59,635 nt of DNA from an uncultured virus (IMG/VR IMGVR_UViG_3300031851_003771) (lineage: Duplodnaviria; Heunggongvirae; Uroviricota; Caudoviricetes): IMG/VR virus record IMGVR_UViG_3300031851_003771, one strand, 5' to 3'. The notes beneath the pieces are model-generated. The model was given only the letters and a program-made list of their open reading frames with translations. It searched no databases and was not told the origin of the DNA. The position numbers were made by a program, and so were the translations under genes. This document shows, one piece after another, positions 3,639-56,900 of this stretch. The stretch's first letter is position 1. Every line of letters starts with the position of its first letter.

Positions 3639-3685
3639 TGTATTAGACAATTTATATATTGTATGTGTATTAGACAATTTATATA
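3638..3685. repeat. 21-bp perfect direct repeat GTGTATTAGACAATTTATATA x2
   Basis: Copies at 3638-3658 and 3665-3685, between two convergent genes. Confidence 0.9.
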
Positions 3686-4992
3686 AATGAATAATTTACA
3701 AATGTATTAGTAAAATTTTTATTACGTCTTCGGTCAATCTCTTGGAAAAACTTCGAACAATCTTTCAACCTATTGTTCGTTTCACGTTTGCCCAGCTGTG
3801 TTTCTACAAAGTAGTTTCTTAGCCTTGTAACATAGTTCAATTCGTTTGGTTGTGTATCTGGTTGTTCACTTACATACTTGACCACATCATCAAATTTAGC
3901 TATCCAGTAATCTGTCTTTGGTAAAGTAAGAACGTTTAAAAAACTAGGGCTATGCAATATGCTGACCCCATACGTAACACCGCTATAAGCACGTTTTAAG
4001 CTGTATACATCCGTCAACAACTGCTTCTGGGTGTCTATGCTTAACATATTTGCGGTCACCATTATATGCAAGGATATGCCGGTTCTAAGCACCATTTTAC
4101 AATGCTCTAACCACTTGCTGTACACCATTCCTTCTCTTATGTATTCTGCCTGTTCTCCGGCACAGTCACAGCTAGTGTGTATCATTGCTTCCTTGATGCA
4201 ACCCTCCTTCTTTAACTTCTTCAGCCTATGGCACGTGTCTATTATTGTTTCAGCTGATATGGAAAGATTGCTGTTTATCTCTAGACGCAGATGTGGTTGT
4301 GGATCTTTTTCCAGGTCGTCTAACAGCTTGAAAGTGTTCTTGTTCAGCAATGGTTCTCCACCTGTTATCCTCAACACCTGTAACGTTTTCTTCAGTTCAG
4401 GCCACCATTTCCACCAGGCTTCCACGTAGGGATTTTCTTCTCTGTTGAGATAGGGTGTCCTTTCCGTTTCGGCAATCCACTCTAGGTTGTTATAACTGTC
4501 CTTGGTAGGGTATGCTCCTTCGTGCTTGATTTCACTCCACCATTCACTGCTGAACACAGGACTGCAATACACACATTTCATATTGCACACGTTACCGAAG
4601 CTGACTTCGACCTGTGCTGGGTTTGTGTTTATATGCCAAGGTTGCGACTTCACTTGATCAAAATAAGGCATAGCCCAGGTGCTGTTGCTGGATTTCTTTA
4701 TTCTGTCGCTGTGGTGTTTGCCTTTGCTGTCTTCTACCTTCCAACAGTAGCTACATTCATCAGGACGTTTGCCTTCCAGCATCAGCTTACGTTGTTGCTT
4801 CTTGTATTCTGTGTTGTGCAAAGCACTGGGATTGTCTTTGATTTCTTCTAATGGAATCTTATGTGTCTGTGGATGGTGACAACTGTGTGTATGTCCATTT
4901 TGTAGATGTATTGTGACCTGTTGCCATTTGGCCAAACAAAAAGACGGAGATACTGAGTCTAATTGCTTTTTTGTTTTTTCAAACTTTTCCAT
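3679..4992 (-). CDS. Radical SAM protein with N-terminal Cys-rich (SPASM/Twitch-like) region
   Basis: CxxxCxxC motif CNMKCVYC, GGEP motif (ITGGEPLL), extra N-terminal Cys motifs (FCLAKW, SCHH, CSYCW). Confidence 0.9.
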   Translation of the reverse strand: MEKFEKTKKQLDSVSPSFCLAKWQQVTIHLQNGHTHSCHHPQTHKIPLEEIKDNPSALHNTEYKKQQRKLMLEGKRPDECSYCWKVEDSKGKHHSDRIKKSSNSTWAMPYFDQVKSQPWHINTNPAQVEVSFGNVCNMKCVYCSPVFSSEWWSEIKHEGAYPTKDSYNNLEWIAETERTPYLNREENPYVEAWWKWWPELKKTLQVLRITGGEPLLNKNTFKLLDDLEKDPQPHLRLEINSNLSISAETIIDTCHRLKKLKKEGCIKEAMIHTSCDCAGEQAEYIREGMVYSKWLEHCKMVLRTGISLHIMVTANMLSIDTQKQLLTDVYSLKRAYSGVTYGVSILHSPSFLNVLTLPKTDYWIAKFDDVVKYVSEQPDTQPNELNYVTRLRNYFVETQLGKRETNNRLKDCSKFFQEIDRRRNKNFTNTFVNYSFI

Positions 4993-9971: not shown

Positions 9972-12900
9972 TTAACTCGTTAAACTCTCACCTGTGTTTT
10001 TGATACGAAGTGGAATATATATGAATTCAATTGCTTTTACTGGTTGTATTGCAATATCAATCCATAATTCATTCTTATCAATTCTAGCACCTGTGTTATT
10101 TGTTTCATCACAGACTACAAGGAAGTCATATAATGCTCTTTTAGACATTAAATCTTCCATAAATCTGTTGAATGTATCTACGACTTGATCCCTTGTTATT
10201 CTATCATTTGGTTCAAACAAGAAAGGTTTCGCTAACAAGTCTAATTGATATCTCATATGCACAATTAATCTTGCTACGTTGATTCTATCCAAAGCTGATG
10301 CTGTTGGTTGTAGAGTCTTTTGTCCAAACACAATCAAACCCCTGTTTGGGATAAACGCAATAGGGTTAACCTTGTTTGCGTACATTGTGTCTCTTTGACC
10401 TTCTGATAATGTAACTGCTTGGAATTCACCTTCGCCTGTTATGTAACCTACTGAGGTTGCGTTATTAACTAAACCTCTTGTATAACCTGCTGGTGCAAAC
10501 CAAGGAAATGCAACTTGATCATTAAATGCTAATGTTCTTAAAGCAATGTGTGTTGCCGGAACAGTAACATTGTTACCTGATAAGTCTGATGTAAAGCCTG
10601 ATGGGTAATAAACAGCCGCATATGGCGAAGCTGATAATAAACCATCTTCTCCGTTTGTTGGTGCGTTTGCTGTATTAGTAGCCCAGTTCTGTATAGCTGT
10701 ACCAGAAGCATTTAATCTAAATGGTGTATCACCAAGTACAAAGGCAGTTTGTTTTCTGTCTGTACTTAAAGTAATCATTTCATCTAACAGTTCAGGATAA
10801 CCAGGAGCGGCTATCAAGTTAAAGAATCTTGATTCTGCTCTGATGTCTTCGTTTCCTTGTAAAGCGGCTTGCATCTTTGTAACAATAACTTGACGCTGTG
10901 CCATTCTACCCATATATGGTGAACCGTCTGTTTTTAGACCTGATTCTGTTACCCAAGTGCTACCATTGTTTGTACCATCAAAAGTGTAATTCGTTACATA
11001 TTTTTTAACATTGTAACCACTTAATCTCATATTGAACAATAATATACCTGCTGGGTATACAGATGGATCCGGTGCATCTGAATCAAAGTTTGAGTATGTT
11101 GCTCCCCAATCTTGTGTATCTTCATCTGCTCCACCTGGATTACCTACTGCATCAGCAAATAGTACACCTGCGTCAGTGCCTTGATCAGTGTTGTCTAATA
11201 GTACCCATTTGCTTGTTGCACTATTGTATTTGTAAATTTTCGGATACGAATCTAACGCATCTGAGTCAATCCAAATATCACCATTTTGCAATGCTGACAC
11301 TTCATCTGATTGTACAGTTGGTTCTGCTGAAACCATTTGTAAGTCTCTTAAACCACCTGCGGCAACAGAGCCTGCTGTGAATCTATCTTTTGAGTTAGCA
11401 TAAGCAAACCACTTCATTACACCACCATCATTTTCAGCAATGTAAATGTCAGCTGATTGTGATGAGTTGTACCAAAGTGTTCCGTTTATTGGGTCGGCTT
11501 TTGGAGTTGTTGCTTTTGCTTCGTACGTAGCATCATTCCAAAGTGACTTATAAAAGAATGCAGTTGAACCTGATGATGTATTATCAGTGAATCCAAGATC
11601 TGCTGTGCTTACGCCTTTAACATTCGATGAATCTGCTCCATCGTGAATGTAAACTGCATATCCACCTGCTCTTGTTAATTTTAAATATTGTCTTGCGTTA
11701 CTCACATAATCTTTTGATGCAACAATATTTGCACCTGATACAGTGGTATTGCCATTAATTGCTGTAACAATCTCGTCTAGTGTTACTGGGTTACCAGCGC
11801 CTGCGGCACCAGTTACTGTAATACTTTGACCGTTAACTTCAAAATTAATAGCTGTGTTCGAGCCACCTGTTGCTACACCACTATTAAGTGATGCTGAGCT
11901 ACCTGTTGCTACTGTTTCTACTCCACTACCTCTAATTCTCAAGTTATACATAACTTCCGGAGTGGATGTTGCTCCACCAAAAGTCAATATATCTTGTTTG
12001 CTGTATGCATCACTTGATAACGTCGATGACGTTGCTGTGAAGTTAGCTTTAAGTTCATTAGATATAGTTTCATCAGAGAAGTCATCAAATCTTACATAAA
12101 CATCGTTTGTTGCAAGTGATGATCCTTCTACAGCAGTTGCGGCGTCATCTCTCGAATAAACGTTCGCAGTCAATGAAGACCAACTACCTGTTGCTGAACT
12201 ATAATTTTTAACAACTACGTTTGCACCTTGTCCACCTGGTGATGATTTTAACCAGACGTCGTTGTAGCTACCTGAAGCGGCTACTGTTGGTGCTGTACCG
12301 TTACTTGATCTAATGTAAACGTTTGCTGACGTGGCAGTCACCCAAGTAGGTGATCCAACCACTGACCAAGTACCTGACACTTTTTGATAAAGTGCGGCCG
12401 GTGATGCTGATGCTATTATTACGTAGTCTAAATCTTTACCATAAGTTATAACTGGTTTACCTTGAGAGTCAACGTTTCCGCCTGCCGCTCCTGGTGTTTC
12501 AGTTAAAACTGCTGGTGTTAATTTTTCCCAAGCAGATGAAGTTGTATTTGCTTGAAATAAACCCCAATCTGTAGAAGCAGTGTCTAACCAGTAAGTTCCA
12601 TTAGCTGGTGCTAATTGAGGTACTGTTGATTGAGCTTCTAATTCGTCTAAGTCTACATCTGCTCTGATGACGTAGGCTCTATTTGCAATTCCTAAATATG
12701 AATATGTTGATAGCAAACCGTATTCATTTCTTTCATCACCGTGGATTTGTGTTCCTTGTAATGATTTAAATGATGGTTCGCCAAAGGTAGTAACTAGTTC
12801 TCTTTGCGATGTTACTAGGAACGGTTTCGCGGCGTTGGCTGAAGTTGTACCTATTGCTGTGTTACCTGTGCTTGGATCTGTTTTATCCTGAGCTGAAGCA

Positions 12901-12995
12901 ATTACAACTAATGGTACTGTACCTTGACCTGCCGGAGCGTACATAGATTCATCAACAACTGATACTGATACACCTGGTGATACTAGTGTTGGCAT
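9972..12995 (-). CDS. Contractile tail sheath protein (gp18-like) with large insertion
   Basis: N-terminal LVSPGVSVSVVDES; C-terminal FPWFAPAGYTRG, NKVNPI, GQKTL, DRINVARL, FEPND, IQPVKAIEFIYIP. Confidence 0.96.
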   Translation of the reverse strand: MPTLVSPGVSVSVVDESMYAPAGQGTVPLVVIASAQDKTDPSTGNTAIGTTSANAAKPFLVTSQRELVTTFGEPSFKSLQGTQIHGDERNEYGLLSTYSYLGIANRAYVIRADVDLDELEAQSTVPQLAPANGTYWLDTASTDWGLFQANTTSSAWEKLTPAVLTETPGAAGGNVDSQGKPVITYGKDLDYVIIASASPAALYQKVSGTWSVVGSPTWVTATSANVYIRSSNGTAPTVAASGSYNDVWLKSSPGGQGANVVVKNYSSATGSWSSLTANVYSRDDAATAVEGSSLATNDVYVRFDDFSDETISNELKANFTATSSTLSSDAYSKQDILTFGGATSTPEVMYNLRIRGSGVETVATGSSASLNSGVATGGSNTAINFEVNGQSITVTGAAGAGNPVTLDEIVTAINGNTTVSGANIVASKDYVSNARQYLKLTRAGGYAVYIHDGADSSNVKGVSTADLGFTDNTSSGSTAFFYKSLWNDATYEAKATTPKADPINGTLWYNSSQSADIYIAENDGGVMKWFAYANSKDRFTAGSVAAGGLRDLQMVSAEPTVQSDEVSALQNGDIWIDSDALDSYPKIYKYNSATSKWVLLDNTDQGTDAGVLFADAVGNPGGADEDTQDWGATYSNFDSDAPDPSVYPAGILLFNMRLSGYNVKKYVTNYTFDGTNNGSTWVTESGLKTDGSPYMGRMAQRQVIVTKMQAALQGNEDIRAESRFFNLIAAPGYPELLDEMITLSTDRKQTAFVLGDTPFRLNASGTAIQNWATNTANAPTNGEDGLLSASPYAAVYYPSGFTSDLSGNNVTVPATHIALRTLAFNDQVAFPWFAPAGYTRGLVNNATSVGYITGEGEFQAVTLSEGQRDTMYANKVNPIAFIPNRGLIVFGQKTLQPTASALDRINVARLIVHMRYQLDLLAKPFLFEPNDRITRDQVVDTFNRFMEDLMSKRALYDFLVVCDETNNTGARIDKNELWIDIAIQPVKAIEFIYIPLRIKNTGESLTS

Positions 12996-13118
12996 AATTT
13001 TAATCTCCCTGCATTAACATTAATTTAATGTATAATCCTTATTATATATAATCATATTTAGTAGAATTTGTTAAAAAGGCACCAATAACAATCACCTTTA
13101 AAGGGATTAAATACAAGT

Positions 13119-13493
13119 ATGAATGATATTAACGAACAAAAGCACATAAGACCACTGTGTACGCACTGCAAGACAAGACCACAAGCCTTTAACTATAGAC
13201 GTAAAGGTAAAATCTACTATCGTAGCAAGTGTGACCAATGTATGAAAGAAGGTCTAGGCTTAAAAACGGGCAAGAAACATTCTTGGGAAAAGAGTGGCTA
13301 TAGAAAAAAACACATATGTGAAAAATGTGGTTTTAAATCAAAACACCCTGCACAGATGGACGTTTATCATATCGATGGAAATTTAAAAAACAATAACTTG
13401 CAAAATCTAAAGACAATATGTGCCAACTGTAGTCGTGTTAAGAGCACAGAAGAACTAGGATGGAAACAAGGTGACTTAAAACCTGACTTATAA
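13119..13493 (+). CDS. Zn-binding HNH-like protein (possibly degenerate nuclease)
   Basis: Four CxxC pairs; [23 protein letters not shown] is HNH-like but lacks the usual terminal His. Confidence 0.75.
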
Positions 13494-13913
13494 TTTAACG
13501 TCAATGCCCATTGATCTGGCCTGACCCGCAACAATTTTAACAGCACCTTCTAAATCTAATGCATTTAAATCTTCCATTTTTTCTTTTGCAATGCTTTCAA
13601 TTTGAGCTCTAGTTATTGTTGCTATTCTACTCCTACCTGGAGTCTTTCCACCTTTTTTTAATTTTAGTGCTTGTCTAATTAAAAATGATGTGGGTGGCTT
13701 TTTACATACGAAATCAAAAGACTTGTCTTTATAAACTGTAATCACTACAGGTATAATCTTACCCATATCGTTTTTAGTTTTTTCGTTGAACCTTTTACAA
13801 AAGTCCATTATGTTAACACCTTTTTGACCCAATGCTGGACCAACTGGTGGAGCGGGATTTGCCTTGCCGGCTTCTATTTGTAACTTTATTAAACCTACAA
13901 CTTCTTTTGCCAT
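13488..13913 (-). CDS. rplK: 50S ribosomal protein uL11 (phage-encoded)
   Basis: Full-length 141 aa with hallmark L11 motifs [68 protein letters not shown] upstream. Confidence 0.97.
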
Positions 13914-13925
13914 AAACTCCTTTGG

Positions 13926-14552
13926 TTAGGGCTTTATTTTTTTTACTATATCTTGTACTGTTTTTTCTAACTCTTCGATGGTACCGTTATTTTCAACAGT
14001 GTAATCTACTCTCATATTTACCCAATCCCATTCGCTAGAATGTACTCCCATATCGTGTAAAGTATTCTGTGAAAACACATCACCATCTGCGGCCAATTCT
14101 GCTGTACCATACCAGTGTGGTTCTGGACCTCGTTTGACTCTAATTGCCACACCACCCATAGTCTTGATTAAACCTAGTTCATTTTTAAATCTACAATCAG
14201 AAACTACAGTGGGCTTACGTCCACTGGCCATATACCTATTCTCTAAACTGTGAAGCCATATGCTAGGGTTAAAGTTTTCTCTAAAGAGCTCTGTGCCAAC
14301 TACCTGTAAGGCATAACGTGGAGTAAATCTTTTATTCTGTAATTTTTGACTCCAATAGCCATCGACTGTTTCTCTAAAAACACGACTCTGTTCAGTGTCG
14401 CCTTCGAGCATCTCACGTGGCCAGCCAAATATATCACTAACTGCATCTTTTAATGGTGACGCAAAAGAGTCTTGTGCAAAGCCTTGTTTTACAAATTGTT
14501 CTGCTACTGTGTTTTTACCGGATCCTATGAATCCTACAAGTCCAATGATCAT
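13926..14552 (-). CDS. Deoxynucleoside monophosphate kinase (T4 gp1-like)
   Basis: P-loop GFIGSGKNT, SFASPLKD, TPRYALQVVGTE, SDCRFKNE, HSSEW. Confidence 0.93.
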   Translation of the reverse strand: MIIGLVGFIGSGKNTVAEQFVKQGFAQDSFASPLKDAVSDIFGWPREMLEGDTEQSRVFRETVDGYWSQKLQNKRFTPRYALQVVGTELFRENFNPSIWLHSLENRYMASGRKPTVVSDCRFKNELGLIKTMGGVAIRVKRGPEPHWYGTAELAADGDVFSQNTLHDMGVHSSEWDWVNMRVDYTVENNGTIEELEKTVQDIVKKIKP

Positions 14553-14558
14553 ATTATT

Positions 14559-14587
14559 ATATTACTTGAATAAAGAGGTTTAGTCAA
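14559..14587 (-). promoter_or_regulatory. sigma70-type promoter for dNMP kinase-rplK
   Basis: TTGACT-17 nt-TAATAT, 6 nt upstream of the kinase ATG. Confidence 0.7.
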
Positions 14588-14599
14588 CCAATTTCTAAA

Positions 14600-15346
14600 T
14601 TATCCAATGACAAAAGTCAATGGATCTTCGCCTGTACCGTATGTGTCTATTTCTCTTTCAAGTCTTTCTATTGTGGCTTGGGCTTCGGCTTTTAGAGCAT
14701 CACCATTTAATGATACTGATCCTTGAGCACCTGGTAAACTTGAATATTTTGATCTTGCTTCACCCAACATCATTTTACACTGTGCGAGTGCATAATCTCT
14801 TATCCAGGGTCTGCTGTATCTTTGTGTTATCAATGTATCAGCTGTTCTTTCCATATAGACTTGTAACAGAACAGTTTCTTCAGCTCTAGGTCTTCTCATT
14901 AAAATTAACTTATTTGATTCGGTGTGATATTTAAAATTTAGATATCCACCAAATAATCTACGTACAACTTCTTGGTACTGTGCAAATGCGTCCCAAGTCA
15001 TTAGTCCACCAATTCTACCACCTTGTAAAAAATAAAGGTTAGTGTATGCTAGTTCAAATGGATCTAGATCAATACTGTTATTTGAACCTGCTACACTTCT
15101 TCTAAATATTTCTCTTACTTCGATCACTTCTTTTGGTAAAGTGTATTCGTTAGTATCTGCTAATATCTTAAGATATATGTAGGATTCCTCAGTTGAATTA
15201 GAACTTCTTTGTCTGAATCTATCTACTGCAAGATCAATACCTTGTTCGTAGTGTTTAGGATCTAGTTCAACGTCAACCATACCATCACCAAGGATAGTAC
15301 GCATTTCAGTGATTAATTCCTGTCTTTTTGTTTGCTGTGTTGCCAT
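14600..15346 (-). CDS. Neck protein (gp13-like head-tail adaptor)
   Basis: LGDGMVDVELD, WIRDYALAQCKMMLGEARSKY..LPG..SLNGDALK pattern; divergent from gp14/gp15. Confidence 0.85.
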   Translation of the reverse strand: MATQQTKRQELITEMRTILGDGMVDVELDPKHYEQGIDLAVDRFRQRSSNSTEESYIYLKILADTNEYTLPKEVIEVREIFRRSVAGSNNSIDLDPFELAYTNLYFLQGGRIGGLMTWDAFAQYQEVVRRLFGGYLNFKYHTESNKLILMRRPRAEETVLLQVYMERTADTLITQRYSRPWIRDYALAQCKMMLGEARSKYSSLPGAQGSVSLNGDALKAEAQATIERLEREIDTYGTGEDPLTFVIG

Positions 15347-15412
15347 CTTACTAGTATTTAGTAAAGGCGCACTCTTTTCAATAAATACTTTAAAGCACTG
15401 TAAAGGAATAAT

Positions 15413-16664: not shown

Positions 16665-18029
16665 ATGCAATACTGGTATGATCAACAAATAAGAAGATAT
16701 ATTTTACAGTTCATAAGACTGTTTGATTCTTTTCAAATTAAAACGGGTACAAAGAGTACATCAGACTCAGAGAGCTACATTAGGGTGCCTGTAAGGTACG
16801 CAGATATGTCAAGAATGGTTGCACATATACTCAGACACAGCTCAGAAAATGTGATGAATTCTGCACCGTTTATTAGTGCTTATATTACAAATTTACAAAT
16901 AGCAAGAGACAGATTACAAGAACCAAGGTTGGTTGATAAAGTTCAGGTTGCGGAAAGAAAATATGATAATTCTGCAAAAGAATACATCTCTGAAATAGGA
17001 AATACATACACTGTTGAACGTCATATGCCAGTTCCTTATAATTTAAATATGGCTGTTGATATATGGTGTTCTAACACAGATCAAAAAATGCAACTAATGG
17101 AACAAATATTAGTGTTATTCAATCCTGCAATAGAACTACAGGCAAACGACAATCCTTTAGACTGGACCAATATCACAAACGTAGAATTAATTGATATTGT
17201 ATGGAGTTCTAGAGCTATGCCACAGGGTGTTGACACACAGCTGGACATTGCGACATTAACTTTTTCTATGCCAATATGGTTAAATCCTCCGGCTAAAGTT
17301 AAAAAGCAATCAATAATTAAACAAATTATTGCAAGAGTCAATAGCACAGATTCAATCGACGACTTAGACTATGATCCAAGATTTATGGATTTCTTTGAAA
17401 ACTTTTCAGGGCAAATAGGCACCATAGTTGTTACTCCTGAGAATGCACAAATTAGTGTAATCGGAAACAATGTGAGTTTGCTAGGTGCATATGGTAAAAA
17501 CGATTCAGAAAAATGGAAAGAGTACCTAGAAGGTTTTGGTGAACTACAACCTGGTATCAGTAAATTGATACTAAGACAGTCTGCAGACATAGAAGACTCA
17601 TCAAATGATGTGTTTGGTACTTTAGCTTTCCATCCATCTGATTCCAATCAACTTGTCTTTACACTCGATAGTGCTTCTTTGCCATCTAATACTTTAACAG
17701 CAGTAACTAAAATTATTGATCCAGAAATAGTTTATCCTGGAAACACTTTACCGGCCGCAACTAGTGGCCAAAGATACTTGTTAGTGAATCCAATACCAGT
17801 TGGAAATGCTTCTTTCGGTAGTACATTTACTGCTGAAGCTAATGACATTATCGAATACGACGGCACTAATTGGAGTATATCTTTTGACAGTAGCAGTGTT
17901 GTATCAACGCAATATGTAACTAATGCTAATACAGGAACACAATATCGTTGGACAGGAACACAGTGGATTGACAGTTACCAAGGACAATATAAAAATGGTT
18001 TTTGGAAATTAGAACTTGCATCTTCTTAA
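16665..18029 (+). CDS. Tail terminator / sheath stabiliser (gp15-like) with C-terminal extension
   Basis: YWYDQQIRRYILQF, VPVRY, MPVPYNL, QLMEQILVLFNP; Trp-rich C-terminal domain (GQRYLL, NDIIEYDGTNW). Confidence 0.85.
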   Translation: MQYWYDQQIRRYILQFIRLFDSFQIKTGTKSTSDSESYIRVPVRYADMSRMVAHILRHSSENVMNSAPFISAYITNLQIARDRLQEPRLVDKVQVAERKYDNSAKEYISEIGNTYTVERHMPVPYNLNMAVDIWCSNTDQKMQLMEQILVLFNPAIELQANDNPLDWTNITNVELIDIVWSSRAMPQGVDTQLDIATLTFSMPIWLNPPAKVKKQSIIKQIIARVNSTDSIDDLDYDPRFMDFFENFSGQIGTIVVTPENAQISVIGNNVSLLGAYGKNDSEKWKEYLEGFGELQPGISKLILRQSADIEDSSNDVFGTLAFHPSDSNQLVFTLDSASLPSNTLTAVTKIIDPEIVYPGNTLPAATSGQRYLLVNPIPVGNASFGSTFTAEANDIIEYDGTNWSISFDSSSVVSTQYVTNANTGTQYRWTGTQWIDSYQGQYKNGFWKLELASS

Positions 18030-18050: not shown

Positions 18051-18485
18051 ATGTATAAAGCAGTCGGAACAACATTTCTGTCCAAAGAGACAGGTAGAAT
18101 ATTATTAAATCTTCGTAGTGGTAAGGTAAAATATCCACATACCTGGAGTTTCTGGGGAGGTAAGATTGAAAAAAATGAAGAAGTGTTAGATGCTTTAAGA
18201 CGTGAATTGAAAGAAGAAATGGGGTTTGTTCCACCTATGCAAAAATTAAATCCTTTAGACACATATACTTCAAAAGATAAAACTTTCATATATTATACAT
18301 TTGTTATACTAACTGATAATGAATTTATTCCTACACTTAATCACGAAAGCTCTGGATATGCTTGGGTTGACATAGCGAAATATCCAAAACCATTACACGA
18401 TGGTGCAAACGTAACATTAACTAATAGAAAAAACATATCAAAACTGAAACAACTGCTACAATCACAGACTACTACTAGTAAATAG
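18051..18485 (+). CDS. NUDIX hydrolase
   Basis: Nudix box GGKIEKNEEVLDALRRELKEEMG. Confidence 0.93.
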   Translation: MYKAVGTTFLSKETGRILLNLRSGKVKYPHTWSFWGGKIEKNEEVLDALRRELKEEMGFVPPMQKLNPLDTYTSKDKTFIYYTFVILTDNEFIPTLNHESSGYAWVDIAKYPKPLHDGANVTLTNRKNISKLKQLLQSQTTTSK

Positions 18486-33067: not shown

Positions 33068-33096
33068 AAATTATACTAAAACAACGTTATGGTCAA
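33068..33096 (-). promoter_or_regulatory. sigma70-like promoter pointing into the non-coding element
   Basis: TTGACC (33091-33096) with TATAAT at 15 nt or TAATTT at 17 nt spacing. Confidence 0.55.
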
Positions 33097-33151
33097 CCTT
33101 TTTTTTATTTTTTGTTTGCTCTTGTTAAAAAAGTGTTATACAATAAGCATT

Positions 33152-33634
33152 ATGAACGGTAAAGAAAGCAAGGTAAGTACCAGTATGCATTGGACGTATC
33201 ACGGTGAAAAAGTAGAAGAAATGCCAGAAGGTGTAGAAGCATTTGTGTATTTGATAACAAATCTCAATAACAATATGAAATACATAGGAAAGAAATTGGC
33301 AAAATTCAAGACAACAAAACCACCTCTAAAAGGCAAGAAGAATAAAAGGCGTGGAACAAAAGAATCAGACTGGAAGGACTATTGGGGGAGCTCAGATAGA
33401 CTTCAAGAAGACGTTGCACAACTAGGTGAAGACAAGTTCTCAAGACAAATATTACATTATTGTCCAAGCAGAGGTATCGCAAGTTATCTAGAAGCCAGAG
33501 AACAGTTTGAACGCAGAGTGTTAGAAAGAGATGATTACTATAATGGTATCATTAATGTAAGAATTGGCGGTTCAAAAATTTTAAAAGAACATTTAAAGAA
33601 TATTAAGGTTGAAAAACAAAGTGACAACACTTAA
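33152..33634 (+). CDS. GIY-YIG family endonuclease-like protein (Seg-like)
   Basis: AFVYLITNLNNNMKYIGKK, YWGSS, YLEAREQF, YYNG. TTGCTC-17-TACAAT lies 7 nt before ATG 33152; alternative ATG 33185 has TAAGTA-N5. Confidence 0.85.
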   Translation: MNGKESKVSTSMHWTYHGEKVEEMPEGVEAFVYLITNLNNNMKYIGKKLAKFKTTKPPLKGKKNKRRGTKESDWKDYWGSSDRLQEDVAQLGEDKFSRQILHYCPSRGIASYLEAREQFERRVLERDDYYNGIINVRIGGSKILKEHLKNIKVEKQSDNT

Positions 33635-34782: not shown

Positions 34783-35145
34783 TTATTTTAATTTTAATAG
34801 ATATATTGTTTGGTTGATACTAGTAATCATATCGTCTATTTGGTCTTTGATATCATCATATGAAATAGTTTTACTAAATTCTTCGTATGCATCTCTCAAT
34901 GATACGGCACTTTCTATAACACTTTCGACGTCGGTATAATCAACCAGTTCCACTGAACCTTGATCTACTTTAATATTTCCAAGTCTACCAGACCAAGTTT
35001 CAACTAGTCCGTCTAGTATACCTGTTATGCTGTCATAGAACTTTCCTAATGCTTCGTGTTGTGCATAGCTGTTAGTTTGCCAATGGTAATATCTTAATTG
35101 ATTACCGTATTCAAGGGTATATCGTACTAATTGTTCAAATTTCAT
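34783..35145 (-). CDS. Ferritin/Dps-like four-helix protein (DUF5856-like)
   Basis: HWQTNSYAQHEALGKFYD...DGLVE metal-ligand pattern; C-terminal YLLKLK. Confidence 0.75.
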   Translation of the reverse strand: MKFEQLVRYTLEYGNQLRYYHWQTNSYAQHEALGKFYDSITGILDGLVETWSGRLGNIKVDQGSVELVDYTDVESVIESAVSLRDAYEEFSKTISYDDIKDQIDDMITSINQTIYLLKLK

Positions 35146-35825
35146 TTTGTTGCTCCTAAATTACAATGGTATTTATTCCATCCTTGCTCTAACATAGGCA
35201 AAAACTTTCTTTTGTCTTTTCTGCCGTGTGCAATGACGTGTAATCTAGACTCATTACTACGATTCCACACTGAATGTGGTTGTCCTACATCTATTAAAAA
35301 TGCACTTCCATTTGTAAAAGGAATAGTGCCATAATTCTTATATCTAAACTCACATTCATTAGGATTATATATTGATATGTTTATTGGATTTAAGCATCTT
35401 TGTTGGTTATCCTGGTGAGGTAGTATATAACCACCTGGTTCCACCCACATAAATCGTAATCTTTTAAAATATTGGTAAGGAAATTGTTCTTTAAAAAATT
35501 TGGTAGTTACAGGACATTGCTCGGATATGCTAGTCCATTTATATTCAGGTTCGGTTTCGAATTGTTTATCATAATACATCCAGTCATTGGTGTATTCACT
35601 ATCAATTCCGTGTAAACAACAACTTAACCATTTTCCTTTGCCTTCATCGTCTCTATGCACGACACATTGATCTTTCACTGCTAGTGCTTCTTTGTGTATT
35701 TGTTGCCAAGGAATATCCAAATCTAACCTAACATAAGGAACAGTAGTATCTTCCTGTAGCCAGTCCCATATGTCTTTGTTGTTGTAGTTTGGTGTAAAAT
35801 GTTCTTGTAAAAAATCTTGATCCAT
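35142..35825 (-). CDS. 2OG-Fe(II) oxygenase, Asp/Asn beta-hydroxylase-like
   Basis: RLRFMWVEPGGYILPHQD (HxD) ... HSVWN ... RLH. Confidence 0.85.
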   Translation of the reverse strand: MDQDFLQEHFTPNYNNKDIWDWLQEDTTVPYVRLDLDIPWQQIHKEALAVKDQCVVHRDDEGKGKWLSCCLHGIDSEYTNDWMYYDKQFETEPEYKWTSISEQCPVTTKFFKEQFPYQYFKRLRFMWVEPGGYILPHQDNQQRCLNPINISIYNPNECEFRYKNYGTIPFTNGSAFLIDVGQPHSVWNRSNESRLHVIAHGRKDKRKFLPMLEQGWNKYHCNLGATK

Positions 35826-43269: not shown

Positions 43270-44693
43270 TGGCAGGTAAAAATCAATCATCCAAGAGTAA
43301 CTTCACTGCTTACACAGAAGGCTCGTCTAAAGGTGCGAAATACAGTACCATACAATTTGCAGAAGTAATGAACACAGTAGACCCAGGTAGAATGGGAAGG
43401 ATGCAAGTTTGGTTGCAAGGTTCACAAAACAGCAAACTGGATTCTAAAAATTGGAAAACAGTACTATGGGCTCAACCTTTCGCAGGTAGTTCACCGGCAG
43501 ATAACTTAATCAAAGGTGGAGAAGGAAAACCAGAAGACAAGATTGAAAATACTTTTGCCGGAACACAAAAAAGTTATGGAATGCATTTTGGTATGCCTGA
43601 CAAAGGCAACATTGTTATTGTAGCATTTGTTGATGGTAACGCGAACCTAGGAGTGTGTTTAGGTTGTATGTATCAACCAGGAATAAATCATATGATACCT
43701 GGAATACCTCGATCTAGTACATTCGGTGACAAAGCACCGCTTGTGCCTGTAGCAGAAACAAACAGGGTTTCAGAAGAAACACAGTATCACGACTTATATA
43801 AAAATGTCGCAGACAAACAAGACGGAGTTAAAAGACCAAAGCACGACACATTTTATACATCTTTGACTACACAGGGACTAGAAAATGATGGCATACGTGG
43901 ACTAACAGATAGTGGTGCAAGGCGTGAATCACCAAGTCAAGTTTACGGTATATTGACACCAGGTGGTCATCAGTTTGTAATGGATGACGTCAATCAAAAG
44001 TACACTAGATTAAGAACCAGTGGTGGTGCCCAAATATTACTAGATGATACAAACAGTACAGTTTATGTCGTCAATAGTAAAGGAACGGGTTGGGTTGAAA
44101 TTACTGAAAAAGGAAAAATAGAAGTTTGGAGTGAAGACAGTATCAGTGTTAGAAGTGAGAAAGATATTAACCTGAGAGCAGACAGAGATCTAAATTTAGA
44201 ATCAGGAAGACATACAAATATTAGAGCACACCAAACAGATGCAAACTCACAACCAAAATCTACAACAGATCTAGGTAGTGTCAAAGGAAATGTGCATATC
44301 GAGTCTGCTGGTAGCTTCAAGCTAAAAGCTGATGTTGGCATAGACGCCAGCACAGAAGGAAGTACAAACATATATTCAACTATCAATAACAATCTAACAG
44401 CATTAGGAACCAGCAATATTAACAGTGCGGCAGGACACTATGAAACAGCCCCGGTCATTCATATGAATGGTCCTCCGGCGGCATTGACAACACCAGTGTC
44501 GAGCATATCTTTACAAGTTGATGCAGATGGTAACTTACTTTGGCCTAACGTACTTGCTGAGAGAACAGGTGCCGCGGCAAACAGTCCTAGAAAAACAGAA
44601 TCAAATAGAGGTTCCATTGTCAGTAGATATCCTACAAGAGAACCATATCCATACCACGAGTCGCAGAGCAATTTAAATACTAATAGCGAATAG
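43269..44693 (+). CDS. Baseplate central spike (gp5/VgrG-like OB-fold plus beta-helix)
   Basis: DPGRMGRMQVW, SYGM...PDKG...VAFVDG, TPGGHQFVMDD, beta-repeat C-terminal half. Confidence 0.85.
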   Translation: MAGKNQSSKSNFTAYTEGSSKGAKYSTIQFAEVMNTVDPGRMGRMQVWLQGSQNSKLDSKNWKTVLWAQPFAGSSPADNLIKGGEGKPEDKIENTFAGTQKSYGMHFGMPDKGNIVIVAFVDGNANLGVCLGCMYQPGINHMIPGIPRSSTFGDKAPLVPVAETNRVSEETQYHDLYKNVADKQDGVKRPKHDTFYTSLTTQGLENDGIRGLTDSGARRESPSQVYGILTPGGHQFVMDDVNQKYTRLRTSGGAQILLDDTNSTVYVVNSKGTGWVEITEKGKIEVWSEDSISVRSEKDINLRADRDLNLESGRHTNIRAHQTDANSQPKSTTDLGSVKGNVHIESAGSFKLKADVGIDASTEGSTNIYSTINNNLTALGTSNINSAAGHYETAPVIHMNGPPAALTTPVSSISLQVDADGNLLWPNVLAERTGAAANSPRKTESNRGSIVSRYPTREPYPYHESQSNLNTNSE

Positions 44694-44791: not shown

Positions 44792-44844
44792 ACGTTCATC
44801 TTGTATGACATATAAGACGGAAGTAGGCGAAGCCGAAGGAACGC
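44792..44844 (+). ncRNA. Glutamine-I (glnA motif) riboswitch aptamer 2
   Basis: P1 CGUUC(44793-97)/GAACG(44839-43); P2 UCUUGUAU-GAC-AUAUAAGA; GGAAGUA-GGC-GAA-GCC-GAAG. Confidence 0.88.
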
Positions 44845-44870
44845 ACCTAACTTTAACAAGGAGGGTGACA

Positions 44871-45068
44871 ATGAATAGATTCGATCACTTACATAAAAAA
44901 TACCGTGAGGAAAAAATGAAAGCTCGTAAAGAAGCAATCTTGAACAAGTCTAGACGTAATGTTGAGACTAACGGAAACGGTACATCAGGATATACGATAC
45001 AAGAAGGCAAGAACAAAAATAAGGTTGCCGGACATATATCTGTAGATCATCAGAATAAAAAAATATAA
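44871..45068 (+). CDS. 65-aa basic protein downstream of the tandem glutamine riboswitch
   Basis: SD AAGGAGG (44858-44864) then ATG 44871; MNRFDHLHKKYREEKMKARKEAILNKSRRN.... The ORF-track start at 44805 lies inside aptamer 2. Confidence 0.8.
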   Translation: MNRFDHLHKKYREEKMKARKEAILNKSRRNVETNGNGTSGYTIQEGKNKNKVAGHISVDHQNKKI

Positions 45069-46246: not shown

Positions 46247-46807
46247 TTATAGTATATGATCTGCTATCTTTAAGTCAACCAATTGTTTGGCTGTAAAATA
46301 CTGATCCGATGGAGTATTGAGCTTTTTTCTAACGTCTTGTAAGGATAATCCACTTGCTTCACGCAATATATTCAAACATCTTAATTCACAGTTATTGTTT
46401 TCTTTCATAGCACTTCTCATATCGTGCATCTTGCTTTCCATTGAGTCAGAGTGTTGGTGATTCATTATTCCAGTATTCTTACCAATATATCTTTCGCCTT
46501 GCTTACCAATAGCAAAGATTAAAAAAGCCGCACTCATAACAGCACCGATACCTATAGTACTAATATGATGATAACTGTTTCTCATTACATCAATTAAAGC
46601 AAATGCTTCGTATAAATCGCCGCCAGTTGAGTTGATATACAACTTTAAAGTACGTTTTGGCTTTTTATTTAAATTGGCTGTGACTATCCATTTAATCGCT
46701 CTAGAAACATTTTCTTCTGCTATTTCTCCCGACAGATAGTGTATATCATTGTCTATAAGATTTACCTCTACTCTGTCTTCGGCTGTGAACTGTTCAAATT
46801 TTTTCAT
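46247..46807 (-). CDS. clpP: ClpP-family serine protease
   Basis: LYINSTGG, GAVMSAAFLI (catalytic Ser), IMNHQ (His), DQYFTA..LVDLKIADHI; start moved to MKKFEQF at 46807. Confidence 0.9.
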   Translation of the reverse strand: MKKFEQFTAEDRVEVNLIDNDIHYLSGEIAEENVSRAIKWIVTANLNKKPKRTLKLYINSTGGDLYEAFALIDVMRNSYHHISTIGIGAVMSAAFLIFAIGKQGERYIGKNTGIMNHQHSDSMESKMHDMRSAMKENNNCELRCLNILREASGLSLQDVRKKLNTPSDQYFTAKQLVDLKIADHIL

Positions 46808-46934
46808 AAGTTTATGTTTTTTGTATAGCTTGTATAGTATATTTATATGGTTTGAATTGCAAGTCTTTTCTTGAAAAAAGATAATTATAGTAGTACTTAA
46901 ATTAGTCAATAAATATTAATAACAAGGAAGCATT

Positions 46935-50896: not shown

Positions 50897-50900
50897 TTAA

Positions 50901-53900
50901 ATGGCCGAGTATAGTAATATTAGTGTTTCAAACACAGCAATAACTACAGAAAATACTGTTAGTACTACTGACACTTTCAAAGCTATTGATTTTTTACCAG
51001 AACTGTTTCAAACACCTAAACTTAAGAACTTTTTCGATGGCACTGTTGAGCAGGTGTTTAGTAAACCTAGTTCAGAAAAAACTACAGAATTTATTGGTAG
51101 AAAGTTTGGATCATATTACAGACCGTTGAAAGACAACTACAAAGTTGAAATCAACAAGAATAGAAATGACTATCAGCTAGAAACATCGATAGTTGTTAAA
51201 AATAGCGACAGCTTATTAACCGAAGATGCTGTATTCTACAATGAACTTTTAGATTTTGTTAGCACTGAAAATGGTAAAACAAATAATCAGTCTAGATTGT
51301 TTTCGCAAAACTATTATTCATATGGTCCACCGATTGATCACGATAAGTTTTTAAATTATGAAAATTATTATTGGTACTCACCTTTAGATGCAAACTATAG
51401 TGCAATAACTGTAGAAGGTACTGAACAACAAATAATAGCCACTAGTGGTGGACAGAATACTTTTACAACAACATATCCAGTAGATTCAACTATAGATAAA
51501 GTATATTTCAAAGGTACAATCACAACTGATTACACTGTTGTAGGTAAGACACTAACATTAACTTCGTTAACGGCACAGGTCGGAGATGTGTTAAAAGTTA
51601 CGCATTATGTTGATCCAGATAAAATTATTGGTAAAAAGAATTTCACTACACCCAATAACATAAAATTAAGTTCTGGTATGTTGATCACAATAGATCCTAC
51701 TTACTTTACTACTACAGGAACATATACAGCAGATACTAGGTACTACATCGAAGGAGTCGGAACAACATTTGGTATTGAACTAATTGCAATCGATGAAGAA
51801 GCAGAATTATTTTTAAGTGAAGCTAATTTACAATGGGACAGAGCAGATACAATTGGTTCAACAGATACGTCAACAGGATGGGATGCAGAGAGATGGGACA
51901 CTATACCTGATACTGCTTCACCTGATTACATCACAATCAAAAGAGGTAGTAAAGACAAAAACCCTTGGTCAAGAACAAACGGTTGGGTTCATAAAGATAA
52001 CGTTCCAATATACAGAAAAGTTGAAGCATATACTGATACGTTTAAACCTTGGGATGGTATCGAGGCGTGGGACGTTGATAACAAAGTATGGGATGCTGTA
52101 ACGGTAACTTCATATGTCGACGAGGCATTTATTCTTGATAATTCAAGGAAAGGTACTAGACCAATTGTTGAATTTGAAAAGGATATACAACTTTACAATT
52201 ATGGAAAAACACACATAGATACAGTAGATCTATTGTCCACAGAAGATAACAAAGCACAGGTAGAAGCAGGTATATCATATACAATAGATGACATAGCGGT
52301 AACAGACGGAATGAAAATACTGTTTGTTAATCCAGCTTTTAATACTGCACTAACACCTTGGGATGGCATCAATGATCCTTGGGATCACGATACAGACAGT
52401 GACGCATCAACAGGTGGAGGTGGACTTACAGGAGGTGATGTTGGTTGGGACGTTGCAGGTAGTGACTTTGATGTTGCTAGTTCATTGTGGCAGGCCACAG
52501 TCGATGGTGTATCAAACATATCATTAACTAAAGTGAATGTCACAATAGTAAATGACAGTAAAATTACAGTAAGACTTGGTAGTGTAAACGGCGGTAAGGA
52601 ATATCACTGGTCAGGTTATAACTGGGTACAGTCGCAATCAAAAGCAAGTATAAATTTTGCACCACTTTACAGTTTATATGATCATAACGGATTGTCTTTA
52701 TCAGATGCTATCAACTATCCATCGAGTACATTCGCAGGAACGCCATTGTTTGGCTATGTGACTGGCACAGGATCCAACGATAGTGTGTTGGGATTTCCAT
52801 TGAGCTATGATAGATATACAGGACTAGGTGAAATTAAATTCAAAAACTGTCACAACGATTATAACAATGATTATGGATTTACCTTTTACAAGAAGTATAA
52901 CAATCCAACAATACTAAAACAGAATTTTGATAAAAAAGTTATTGTTCAGCCAGGTGTCAAATCAGGTAATGACTTTTATATCGACGGAATCAGAAAAGAA
53001 AACTTAATACTATTACGTAACCATAGATATATCTTTAACTTATCTGATCCAAGTACATCAACAACGGGTTACACCGGCGGGTATCATCCACTAGGATTAA
53101 GCACAACTAAAGACGGAACACACGGCGGCGGCGCTCTATACACAACGAATGTAAAATATTTCTTAGATGATATTGAAGTGACAAGCACAGTATTCAATGC
53201 AACAGCTACCTTCAATGAAGCAACTGATAGAAGAATTGAATTCGAACCAGATTCCAGCACACCGGATACTTTATATTACTATTGTCCTAATCACTCTGGA
53301 ATGGGAGCTTCAGCATTTGTAGAAAATAATAATGTGACATCTTTAGATGATGCTTCAACAATCGATTACTTAAATCAATGGGCAGTTGTAAAAGACAAGT
53401 CATCACAACAATTAAGACAAGAGTTCCAAGTAACAGAAAGTTCAACTGCAAACACATTCGTATTAGAATCGATAATTGCAGACGATTCGACTGTTAGGGT
53501 TTATGTTGACAGTCTCGAAAAACAAGCAGGCACATATTACACGATAGTTGGTAATAAGAAAATTGTCACAACATCAAATGTAGCTGTCGGCAGTCACGTG
53601 ATTGTTAGCTGGAATACATTTGAAGAAAAGAATTTAAAAGAAGCTTATTATGTTGCACCGAAAAATTTAACACACAATCCAGAAAACAACGATATTGCAA
53701 CACACTCTTACAGTGACTTACTTGATCATTTTGGAGAAAACATTGCCAATCAAGATAATATATCAGGATTAGCCCTAGGATCAAATACATACAGAGATAC
53801 TCACAAAAGTTTATCGGCAGGTGATACTATATTACAACACACTGCACCAGCACTAAAATTTGCTACTCACGTCAACAGTGACAACAGAAATCTTATCAAA

Positions 53901-56900
53901 GCTGTCAGAACAGCACAAGATGACTATACCAGATTCAAAAATAAATTTATTAGCAAGACAGCTGAAGTAGTAACAACTAACGACACTTCAACCTGGAAAG
54001 ATTCAACTTTAGTTGACTATGTATTAAGAGAAATCAATAAGAATAAAAAAGTTTCTGAAAAATGGTCATATAGTTTAATGCTATCATATGGGGATACAAA
54101 GCAAACCACAAGCACAACTGTTACTAGCACTAATAAAACTTGGTCTAATTCTACAAGTAGTTACGAAGTACAAAGTTATAGTGCAATAATGGATACCAGT
54201 GGTAAACCTGGACTAGAAATAGCATACGCATACAATCCTAGAGATGACAAAGATACTAAATCTTTATACGTTTATAATAATGATGTGTTGTTAACAATGA
54301 ACAACGATTATGTTATTGATAACGTATCTGCAACAAGGATCGTTTTTATTGGTCCTAACAAACCAGTGGTGAATGATGTTGTTAAAGTAGAATATTATTC
54401 TAACAAACAACCAGCCTGGATACCAGCTACACCATCAAAACTTGGTATGGATAAAGTTTATCTTCCTCAGCAAATAACTGACAGTCAATCATATTCATCT
54501 GGATCAAAAACATTTACGCAAGGTCACGATGGATCTTTAATTCCATTATACAATGATGATAGAGATAGAGCATTACTTGAATTAGAAAAAAGAATTTACA
54601 ACGACATAGAAAATAGATTTATGGATCCAGACTATGTACCACCTATCTCATATAACACTTTAGTAAGTAACTACTTTAACAGCAAGTTATATTCTTACAA
54701 AGAGTACAACGACATAGTTAAACCACATATCTACAGATGGTCAGTTTTTAATCAAGCTGATTTAACAACAAACGCAAATTACAGCAGTGCAGACTGGAAA
54801 ACTTGGAACTGGTCTGACTGTGTTGATTTATCAGGAACAATGGCTCCTGGCCATTGGAGAGGAATATTCAAGAAATTTTACGGCACCGATAGACCTCATA
54901 CACATCCTTGGGAGATGTTAGGATTCAGTATTAAACCTACTTGGTGGGATAACAACTACAACTGGTCTACAGCAGGTAAACGTGCATTATTAATTAATGA
55001 CATCGAAAAAGGTATCATTAGAGATGGTGACAGAGCCAACTTGTTAAATCTAAAATATACGGGTAAAAATAATTACAGACATAACAATTTTAGCAGTTAT
55101 GTTCCAGTTGATACAAGTGGTAACTTAATTGATCCATTCACAATTGGTTTAACAATTCTACAACCAGATAGTGTACAAGCACAGAAGCCTTGGAAAGCTG
55201 GAGATTTAGCACCAACTGAACGAGCATTTTTTATGAACAGTTCTTCTGGTTTTGCTAATACATCAGTTACGTCATTGATGAAACCTGCAGAGTATTATTC
55301 ATTAATGTTTGATACATTGAATCTTAAAAACATACCAATTAATAATAGTATGGTATATGATGGCAGTACAAAACTAAGACATACAAATAATGTGTATGTT
55401 CATAGAGAAGTAGAAAATGATAGAATTGTAAGCAGTCAAGGATATAACCAATATATCAGTGAGAGACTAATTGAACAAAATAAAAATGTTAAAGACAAGT
55501 ATGGTGGAATATTAAGAAATGTTAAACCACAAATAGCACATAAACAAGGTGCATTTATTGATTTTAGTTCTTATAAAGTTCAAGCTGAATCATATTCCCC
55601 TGCAACTAAAACAACAAGTATTTTTATTCCTCAGAATAATATTACACATAGAACTCACGTAAGTCCAGCAATCAAGAATTACTCATATTCAGCTGTTCTT
55701 GTTGAAAAAACATTATCTGGATTTACAGTAAAAGGTTATGATATCAATAATAACTATTTCACAACAGCAGTGAGCCAAAAAACTGGGCCTGGCATTGAAG
55801 TGAGGGTTGGCGGTAATAATATTAATGTTCCAGCATATACTCCTAACCAGACATTGGCTATAGGTGAGTATGTCAAGTATGAAGGAATATATTACAAAGT
55901 TAGAGTAGCTCACACAACAACAAGCAGTTTTGAAGCTAGTAATTTTCAATCAGTTAATCAAGTACCAGTAGAAAATGGTGCGGCAGTCACTTATTATACA
56001 ACAGTTAAAAACAATGAAACTGCACAAATTGATTATGGAACAGAATTCAAAAGTATAGATGACGTATTTGATTTCCTTGTCAACTACGGAAGACACTTGG
56101 AATCAGAGGGTTGGATCTTTGACAGTTACAATAGTGATACTAACACAAATAGTGACTGGTTATACGCTGGTAAAGAATTTTTATTCTGGAGTCTAGGTGG
56201 TTGGGGAACAGGAAGTATTATAGCATTATCCCCGAGTGCAAACAAGATAACATTTAAACCGGTACAAGGAGTTGTAGCAAATGTTGAAGATATCGTTGGT
56301 AGTACATATTCTGTTTTAGATAGTAACGGTCTACCAATAGAGAATGCAACAACAACAGTGGTGAGAGATGGTAACAAATTAACATTGACTGATGATAACA
56401 ATAGACCAATATACTTTACTACATTGTACACTAGAGAAATTGAACATATATCTATATTCGATAACATAACACTATTTGACGATGTGATATATAATCCAAC
56501 GTTGTCTATCAGACAACCAAGATTAAAACAGACTGTATTAAAGACAACTGATTGGACAGGAAAATTAGAAGCAAAAGGTTACTTGATTACAGACACCGAC
56601 GGACTGGTTTCTAACTTTGAAACCAGTACACGAGATGTTAATAGATATCTTGATGTTGATACTCCGATAGCAAATGATAATTTAAAGAAAGCTGGATTGA
56701 GAACAATCGGTTTTAGTAACAGAAGCTATCTAGAAAATTTACAAATCATCGATGAGAATCAAGCTAAATTCTATCAAGGATATGTTAAGCAAAAAGGCAC
56801 ACAAAATGCCATCGACAGGTTGGCAAGAACTGAAGTAATCAGTGAAAGAGACAGTTTAAACGTATATGAATATTATGCTTTCAAGGTTGGCGAATTTGGA

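Follow-up and report, generated by a model that had tools for sequence, protein, structure and literature searches.

A ribosomal protein uL11 gene in an accessory hotspot of marine jumbo myoviruses

The uL11 locus and its phage surroundings

The stretch of DNA analyzed here, 59,635 nt of an uncultured tailed virus (IMG/VR record IMGVR_UViG_3300031851_003771; henceforth the window), carries a gene for the ribosomal protein uL11 in the midst of phage genes. The coding sequence (rplK-like; 13488..13913, minus strand) starts with ATG and specifies 141 amino acids containing both Pfam L11 domains in the expected order: the N-terminal factor-facing domain (Ribosomal_L11_N, PF03946; 5.5e-30, residues 9-66, profile positions 1-58 of 58), followed by the C-terminal rRNA-binding domain (Ribosomal_L11, PF00298; 9e-26, residues 71-139, profile positions 1-69 of 69). 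The NCBIfam bacterial equivalog TIGR01632 (L11_bact) scores 203.7 bits against a cut-off of 141.85, and the solved L11 of Thermotoga aligns with the phage protein over its full length (E = 1.4e-51). PHROGs holds no family for the protein. A first-pass annotation, made from the sequence alone, had described an intact 141-residue uL11 with its proline-rich loop and C-terminal rRNA-binding domain, and this description stands: 13488..13913 encodes a bona fide, intact, full-length uL11 of the bacterial type.

The predicted fold agrees. An AlphaFold2 model built from a 30-sequence alignment (mean predicted local distance difference test score (pLDDT) 88.0, predicted TM-score (pTM) 0.72) finds L11 chains, or ribosome and L11-complex entries, as all of its top 50 listed matches in the PDB; ranks 1-3 have TM-scores (TMq) of 0.85-0.89, and the highest listed value is 0.93 (rank 6, 8fmw_AK; 2nxn_B reaches 0.89). 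The consensus of 18 phage sequences (types A and B, defined below) is identical to the bacterial residue at 55 of the 56 positions that are at least 90% conserved in 94 bacterial sequences; the sole exception is position 89, Ser to Ala or Gly, which lies in a loop. K3 and K40 – which we take to be the targets of PrmA – and the proline-rich loop PxPPxGP are all kept. Five residues are fixed in the phages and rare in bacteria (T75, F77, I97, E111 and Q131), and five others are common to the phages and a SAR11-like bacterial clade discussed below (K47, M50, K52, K62 and G93).

A Shine-Dalgarno (SD)-like AAAGGAG (13917..13923, minus) is found 3 nt before the uL11 ATG, within a short leader that has moved with the coding sequence, and its AAAGGA is invariant in nine of nine aligned type A and B relatives. 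A gap of 12 nt (13914-13925) separates uL11 from the next gene upstream on this strand, that for deoxynucleoside monophosphate kinase (dNMP kinase, dNMK; 13926..14552, minus; phrog_139, 1.2e-44; PF21448, 1.2e-11), itself preceded by a head-tail adaptor gene (14600..15346, minus; phrog_211, 2.8e-34). On the other side an HNH-like zinc-finger gene (13119..13493, plus; phrog_2255, 1.3e-10) converges on uL11, such that the 3′ ends of the two genes overlap by 6 nt (TTATAA). The locus is bounded by the tail sheath gene, a phage hallmark (9972..12995, minus; phrog_10581, 2.3e-264), and flanked further upstream by a gp15-like sheath stabilizer (16665..18029). The strong SD, the 12-nt distance between uL11 and dNMK, the flanking phage genes and the lack of nusG and rplA had all been pointed out from the sequence alone, and all are borne out; neither nusG nor rplA turned up among the open reading frames (ORFs) scanned, and the secE-nusG-rplK-rplA(-rplJ-rplL) context of cellular rplK is not that of the window gene. 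The stretch is not a host fragment.

Hallmark genes occur on both sides of uL11 and include, across the window, those for the large terminase, portal, major capsid protein, prohead protease, sheath, tube, baseplate and a gp55-like late sigma factor. Among cultured phages the best relatives of the window are jumbo myoviruses: the capsid protein is 67-69% identical to those of Sinorhizobium phage Phosso (469 kb), Vibrio phage 2.275.O (349 kb) and the PA5oct group, and the tail sheath is 43% identical to the PA5oct-group sheath; a megablast of 10 kb against public phages gave no match. The window is that of a marine jumbo myovirus, distantly T4-like. Its GC content is 35.7% and no tRNA genes were found in it. 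CheckV rates a 242,646-bp contig of one relative as 55% complete, and a genome of 328,149 bp as complete with terminal repeats; from such estimates the genomes of the relatives are of the order of 330-440 kb. Elsewhere the window carries genes for a radical SAM protein (3679-4992, minus), a NUDIX hydrolase (18051-18485, plus), an Asp/Asn beta-hydroxylase-like protein (35142-35825, minus) and a ClpP-like protease (46247-46909, minus). Its last ∼9 kb (50900-59635) consist only of short ORFs of up to 125 aa, with no family match among those scanned and no tRNA.

The locus recurs well beyond the window. In two further loci (L001 and L002) the uL11, dNMK and HNH proteins are 100% identical to those of the window and in the same order; the exact uL11 protein is encoded on 13 contigs, the longest of 199,826 bp, and 66 of the 120 protein clusters listed are at least 75% identical to it. 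IMG/VR holds 20 loci with uL11 relatives at 66-100% identity, 18 of them in the sheath/dNMK neighborhood. Of the words sampled from 12900-15400, at least 60% occur in each of fourteen DNA sequencing runs. In five of the runs the share is at least 94%; these five stem from as many studies, and not one is flagged as a possible source. Read coverage across the junctions had been proposed as a check, and at the level of contigs both junctions are continuous: in run X7 one contig of 2,125 nt corresponds to 13067-15191 with 1 mismatch and crosses both, while contigs of run X4 bridge each separately.

It is therefore extremely unlikely that the locus is an artefact, whether of chimeric assembly or of the misfiling of a bacterial contig under viruses. 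Records of that kind do exist. The rplK context was read in two of 19 matched public phage records, and in both it is a bacterial operon: tRNA-Trp-secE-nusG-rplK-rplA in MaAM05 and tufA-secE-nusG-rplK-rplA-rplJ-rplL-rpoB in ‘Acinetobacter phage MD-2021a’. The viral nature of PhiMa05 has moreover been contested in print (PMC13623518, accessible part). The window, however, has phage hallmarks in place of these operon partners, and its junctions are the same in L001, L002 and the independent runs X4 and X7.

An accessory gene at an insertion hotspot

With the adaptor protein as query, 80 related loci were recovered; 60 of them could be assessed (both dNMK and the HNH-like gene visible), and 20 were cut by contig ends. 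uL11 is present at the dNMK/HNH junction in 13 of the 60. The ancestral order is adaptor and dNMK facing the HNH-like gene, followed by the sheath, and upon this order four types of arrangement are superimposed. In type A, that of the window (4 loci), uL11 follows dNMK on the same strand and converges with the HNH-like gene. In type B (9 loci) it is inverted: uL11 lies downstream of the HNH-like gene, on the strand of that gene and convergent with dNMK, with 0.35-1.3 kb of small ORFs in between. Type C is devoid of uL11, with dNMK and the HNH-like gene abutting within ∼8 nt in a near clade (16 loci) and spaced by ∼48 nt in a distant clade (24 loci). Type D (7 loci) also lacks uL11, but has ∼1.4 kb of small ORFs without family match. 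The junction is an insertion hotspot, and uL11 an accessory gene within it.

The HNH-like gene occupies a fixed position in each of the 60 assessable relatives; it belongs to the conserved core of the phage family and is probably not a mobile homing endonuclease. Its score against the Pfam family HNH_3, 21.8 bits, is under the cut-off of 24.8; a SegE-like GIY-YIG homing endonuclease gene is present elsewhere in the window (33089-33634, plus; PF19835, 7.8e-34). Among the small ORFs of the hotspot, two in locus L008 (6501-6773 and 6803-7093, plus) are paralogous, ∼90 aa in length and without Pfam match. By eye, an ORF of 70-73 aa looks common to a type B locus (L014, 6417-6638) and a type D locus (L121, 2388-3418).

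In a tree of the adaptor and dNMK (43 distinct rows) type A groups with type C (support 91), one type B group with type D (94) and another type B group with type C (86). In the uL11 tree type A is nested among type B (7-row clade, support 100/94), from which it follows that the orientation seen in the window, with uL11 co-oriented with dNMK, is derived. Homology between the type A and type B loci is confined to the coding sequence and ∼14 nt of leader including the SD. A search for flanking inverted repeats able to explain the flip returned only short, imperfect AT-rich pairs.

uL11 also occurs at a second locus. In a complete 328-kb genome (G708, locus L018) and on a 92-kb contig (L019) a uL11 with 66-68% identity to that of the window is found among other neighbors; both loci contain cold-shock proteins, uL11, a QueD-like gene and ClpX. 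The 328-kb genome has, in addition, an adaptor homologue (67% identity, L151) at which the junction is of type C. Given that one genome combines uL11 at L018 with an empty junction at L151, a related phage keeps uL11 elsewhere.

Selection on uL11 is purifying rather than relaxed, the latter being the outcome that the first-pass annotation had named as speaking against a functional gene. The Nei-Gojobori ratio of nonsynonymous to synonymous substitution rates (dN/dS) has a median of 0.110 (range 0.035-0.235, median dS 1.05; 9 loci, 36 pairs), similar to the medians of the neighboring core genes: 0.127 for the adaptor, 0.136 for dNMK and 0.079 for the HNH-like gene (the last from 25 usable pairs, 11 being saturated). 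The GC content at third codon positions (GC3) of uL11, 0.225, is inside the phage range of 0.185-0.328; SAR11-like rplK genes have values of 0.12-0.18.

The cellular relatives of the gene are distant. The best matches among GTDB species genomes are 58-66% identical and scattered across phyla, and in a sample of 301 Cyanobacteriota genomes the best match (66%) is no closer than those from other phyla. A quick tree (154 rows) placed the type A/B clade (19 rows, support 97) as sister, weakly (80), to 24 metagenomic proteins (P0083); no member of this sister clade was found in IMG/VR. Of 401 alphaproteobacterial genomes, three match the sister clade at 81-84%, and no other listed match exceeds 68%. 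These three genomes (G121 and G279, contigs of 1,211,322 and 1,160,953 bp, and G395, ∼1.3 Mb in total) have a sampled GC content of 24-31%, and each encodes a rhodopsin and one RelA/SpoT-domain protein; from their class, size, GC content and rhodopsin we label them SAR11-like. Their uL11 proteins share 70%, 66% and 66% identity with that of the window.

A more careful tree (87 rows) unites seven other Alphaproteobacteria, the SAR11-like sequences (98/96), the type A/B phages (98/97) and the L018/L019 copies (100/99) in one group with support of 92/85, within which the branching order is not fixed. The type A/B and L018/L019 copies fall on one side of a branch supported at 44/0. Holding type A/B with the SAR11-like clade gives a likelihood slightly above that of the free search (p-AU of 0.617 in the approximately unbiased (AU) test), and holding the cellular Alphaproteobacteria together without the phages is likewise not rejected (p-AU 0.502). 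The phylogeny that had been proposed as a check thus places the gene in the alphaproteobacterial radiation, whereas monophyly of the phage copies is poorly supported and the AU tests fix no donor. We regard an alphaproteobacterial type of uL11 as moderately supported by the trees, and a SAR11-like donor as a best guess.

SAR11-type bacteria and cyanobacteria are the two candidate hosts. Two further comparisons count against a simple host assignment. The gene for initiation factor 3 (IF3) of a type B relative (G707) has its best matches, at 41-44% identity, in other small genomes among the 401 alphaproteobacterial genomes; the three SAR11-like genomes are not top-ranked, and the SAR11-like donor gains no corroboration from this gene. 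The glutamine riboswitch family was found in none of five genomes searched (the three SAR11-like and two others), and among 14 controls matched in Synechococcus elongatus only. TLC translocase was found in none of four genomes, with controls lacking a match too. The window itself carries two tandem glutamine riboswitch aptamers (RF01739; 44738-44786 and 44791-44847, plus; 56.0 and 60.7 bits against a gathering score of 35), downstream of which is a small ORF without family match (44805-45068); a TAAATAC motif is found at 44674-44680. Any tie between uL11 and this riboswitch is conjecture.

Promoter elements and transcription

The first-pass annotation had placed dNMK and uL11 behind a sigma70-type promoter as a co-transcribed pair. 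A sigma70-like element, TTGACT-17-TAATAT, is indeed present upstream of dNMK (14587..14559, minus), its -10 hexamer ending 6 nt before the dNMK ATG. A scan of the 2.8-kb region returned 10 matches against 10.5 +/- 3.0 in shuffled sequence, and because this count is at chance level the scan is by itself no evidence; on the other hand, TTGAC-17-TAATAT is conserved at the same place before dNMK in diverged type A, C and D relatives, and in a type B locus (L116) the element is again directly before dNMK although another gene has been inserted upstream. An SD before dNMK is lacking both in the window (14553-14599 region) and in every relative aligned, and together with the position of the -10 element this suggests a possibly leaderless dNMK message. 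An element of its own, TTGACA-17-TATTAT, precedes the inverted uL11 of type B, ∼20 nt before the SD and clear in four of six aligned loci. Conserved motifs thus suggest that uL11 lies behind host-type sigma70-like promoter elements in both orientations.

In the window dNMK and uL11 are likely co-transcribed: they are 12 nt apart, the adaptor, dNMK and uL11 are each without a terminator-like site downstream, and an RNA-library contig of X18 (13866-14062) bridges the gap, although such contigs, which may be DNA carry-over, cannot prove a single transcript. A second RNA-library contig (X15) covers 13461-13611; cover is lacking elsewhere, for instance at 13055-13387 in both X15 and X18. The link to dNMK is, however, specific to a sub-lineage: in most relatives with the gene, uL11 is inverted, convergent with dNMK and equipped with its own promoter-like element.

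A second class of element is defined by TAAATAC, which we take to resemble the core of T4 late promoters. One copy (15354..15360, minus), a candidate T4-late-type core, is found 7 nt upstream of the adaptor start and another (13108..13114, plus) 4 nt upstream of the HNH-like start. In total the motif, which was chosen post hoc, is not enriched in the window (14 copies against 18.1 expected). Its distribution is nonetheless highly skewed: for 11 of the 14 copies, an ORF on the same strand starts 4-26 nt downstream (expectation 2.1%, binomial 1.5e-16). The genes so preceded include those for terminase, head closure, portal, adaptor and HNH-like protein, but not dNMK or uL11. In several instances the motif is just 4-9 nt from the start with no intervening SD (upstream of 2777, 7739, 13119, 15346, 28736, 35825 and others; terminase, head closure, HNH-like, adaptor, portal and the hydroxylase gene). 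The start-proximal copies suggest T4-late-like promoters that yield leaderless or near-leaderless messages. The T4 late consensus TATAAATA is present 5 times where 7.0 would be expected, and not in the vicinity of the locus.

Combining these elements, the window may contain a late-type start before the adaptor and a host-type promoter before dNMK-uL11. Transcripts from both would run into the convergent, overlapping HNH-like gene, and the adaptor transcript may read through into dNMK-uL11.

Possible roles of phage uL11 and comparison with known systems

We give about even odds to the following reading: that phage uL11 is a functional, long-carried accessory gene of very large marine myoviruses, the product of which enters the host 50S subunit and escapes feedback control by uL1. 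Early after infection, host RNA polymerase would make the uL11 message, with additional uL11 coming, in the window arrangement, from read-through of the late adaptor transcript. The protein would bind the conserved H43/H44 of host 23S rRNA and take the place of uL11 at the base of the L7/L12 stalk, loading onto new or uL11-free 50S subunits or entering by exchange. In Proteobacteria free uL1 represses rplK-rplA at a site in the 5′ untranslated region before rplK (PMC10931766, accessible part). The phage gene has a 12-nt leader without a uL1 site and no rplA partner, from which we infer that its synthesis would escape both uL1 feedback and the collapse of host ribosomal protein expression; no ribosomal protein leader reached Rfam thresholds in the window. 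Under our proposal the GTPase-associated centre, with its contacts to elongation factors EF-G and EF-Tu, initiation factor IF2, release factors and RelA-tRNA, would in this way remain complete throughout a prolonged infection of a host that grows slowly and has few ribosomes.

Phage uL11 would act beside other translation genes of the relatives: bS21, IF3 and, in one, EF-G. bS21 is encoded on three of five relatives' contigs and MazG on two of five, and in the 328-kb genome bS21 is found 1.5 kb beyond the L018 stretch; bS21, IF3, EF-G and MazG together point to a broader investment in translation. EF-G (689 aa) was seen in L018 only, and IF3 together with a bS21 that has an N-terminal extension (118 aa) in L019 only. 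In G707, the 242-kb type B relative, genes for IF3 (184 aa) and bS21 (118 aa) are adjacent with an 8-nt overlap (L208, 840-1743). A more far-reaching view, which we think rather doubtful, would make uL11 one module of a long-standing translation toolkit (uL11, bS21, IF3 and in one case EF-G) of 330-440 kb marine phages. Here the toolkit would re-equip host ribosomes for the phage's own, often seemingly leaderless messages, its uL11 lineage having become, through long evolution in phages, as distinct as a bacterial order and moving between loci and orientations to shift the timing of expression.

Several points weigh against a functional ribosomal uL11. The gene is missing from the site in 47 of the 60 assessable relatives, and the core-gene tree (adaptor and dNMK) needs at least three changes between presence and absence; together these imply that any benefit is conditional or small. 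The escape from uL1 feedback is deduced from the length of the leader, the promoter calls draw solely on motif conservation, and the RNA-library contigs give neither strand nor expression level. The proteins known to exchange readily on ribosomes are bS21, bL12, bL9, bL31 and bL33, not uL11 (PMC6375957, main text), and we found no open paper showing exchange of uL11 in vivo.

The same patchiness is what would be expected were uL11 a neutral passenger – host DNA acquired at random, not yet shed and of no function to the phage – and Mizuno et al. give random sampling of host DNA as a source of viral ribosomal protein genes (PMC6375957). We nevertheless judge this very improbable, given a dN/dS of 0.11 at a dS of ∼1 between carriers, retention of the gene along with its SD across an inversion, a GC3 that has moved into the phage range, nearest cellular sequences that are just 66-70% identical, and a second related lineage with the gene at a different locus. 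Patchy occurrence in a hotspot is, on the other hand, typical of counter-defence cargo. uL11 might thus be a decoy or sponge that acts off the ribosome, binding phage RNA or else some host factor – for instance a defence system, PrmA or a thiopeptide-like inhibitor – by which uL11 or the GTPase-associated centre is sensed, modified or attacked. The otherwise function-unassigned small ORFs of the hotspot and the five phage-specific residues would fit such a role, but conservation of 55 of 56 rRNA-binding and factor-facing sites exceeds the needs of a decoy with a single partner, PrmA was not found on five relatives' contigs and no partner is known; we consider the idea unlikely.

Slightly less probable still is the idea put forward in the first-pass annotation, that phage uL11 replaces that of the host and leaves RelA unactivated, keeping (p)ppGpp (guanosine tetra- and pentaphosphate) low and host metabolism running. 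MazG, present in two of the five relatives, has been proposed to lower (p)ppGpp, and each of four candidate donor-like genomes encodes one RelA_SpoT-domain protein. Activation of RelA requires the L11 N-terminus, as stated in the accessible part of PMC4974054. Yet the N-terminal domain of the phage protein is canonical, with the PxPPxGP loop and all of its sites of at least 90% conservation kept, so that the sequence predicts a RelA-competent uL11 and gives no sign of dampening. In cryo-EM structures the contact of the L11 N-terminus is with the A/R tRNA rather than with RelA (PMC4974054, same part), which lowers the likelihood of a species-specific mismatch with host RelA. A RelA/SpoT homologue was found on none of the five relatives' contigs.

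Whichever role applies, the place of uL11 is the GTPase-associated centre, the docking site of elongation, initiation and release factors and the point from which starved ribosomes activate RelA. Being both conserved and abundant, phage uL11 is a clean natural handle on whether viruses tune this centre or just supply it once synthesis of host ribosomal proteins stops. Some marine huge phages combine several translation genes, and the pattern of hotspot and inversion illustrates the ways in which phages acquire, rewire and lose such a gene.

Compared with cellular uL11, as known from Thermotoga maritima and Thermus thermophilus (1mms, 2nxn), the phage protein has the same length and both domains, 58-62% identity, TM-scores of 0.88-0.89 to 2nxn_B and 1eg0_K, and the conserved sites described above; in contrast to cellular rplK, the phage gene is not preceded by secE-nusG or a long leader nor followed by rplA, and is flanked by structural genes. 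Virus-encoded uL11 was known before. In Supplementary Table 2 of Mizuno et al. (2019, PMC6375957) uL11 is detected three times among 1,403 contigs carrying ribosomal protein genes (two environmental, one host-associated; pN/pS 0; none temperate), against 1310 detections of bS21, which agrees with the rarity that the first-pass annotation had supposed. Like the proteins treated in that work (bS21 of pelagiphage HTVC008M, bL12), uL11 is encoded by a lone ribosomal protein gene of cellular origin under purifying selection in an aquatic tailed phage of lytic type; the main text, however, does not discuss uL11, and incorporation into ribosomes was shown for bS21 and bL12 only.

An annotated parallel is the uL11 of PhiMa05/MaAM05 (Meza-Padilla et al. 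2026, PMC13157829), also from a jumbo genome and 52.6% identical to that of the window. That gene differs in belonging to a bacterial rplK block and falls on a long branch far from the window clade, and a Comment disputes the viral nature of the PhiMa05 record (PMC13623518, accessible part); the window offers a much cleaner example of a phage uL11. One open-ocean viral population with L11 figures in the curated ALOHA 2.0 virus database (Luo et al. 2020, PMC7174320), in a single sentence and without analysis in the accessible part of that paper. Beyond these reports and the Comment, our full-text search for uL11 with phage found no treatment of the subject. The late-expressed bS21 of huge phages (Chen et al. 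2022, PMC9723584, accessible part) resembles the present case in being a ribosomal protein gene amid structural genes, but belongs to the other subunit, and uL11 of the window lies behind sigma70-like rather than late-type elements. What is new here, for a whole clade, is the hotspot, the inversion, the promoter elements, the phylogenetic placement and the companion genes.

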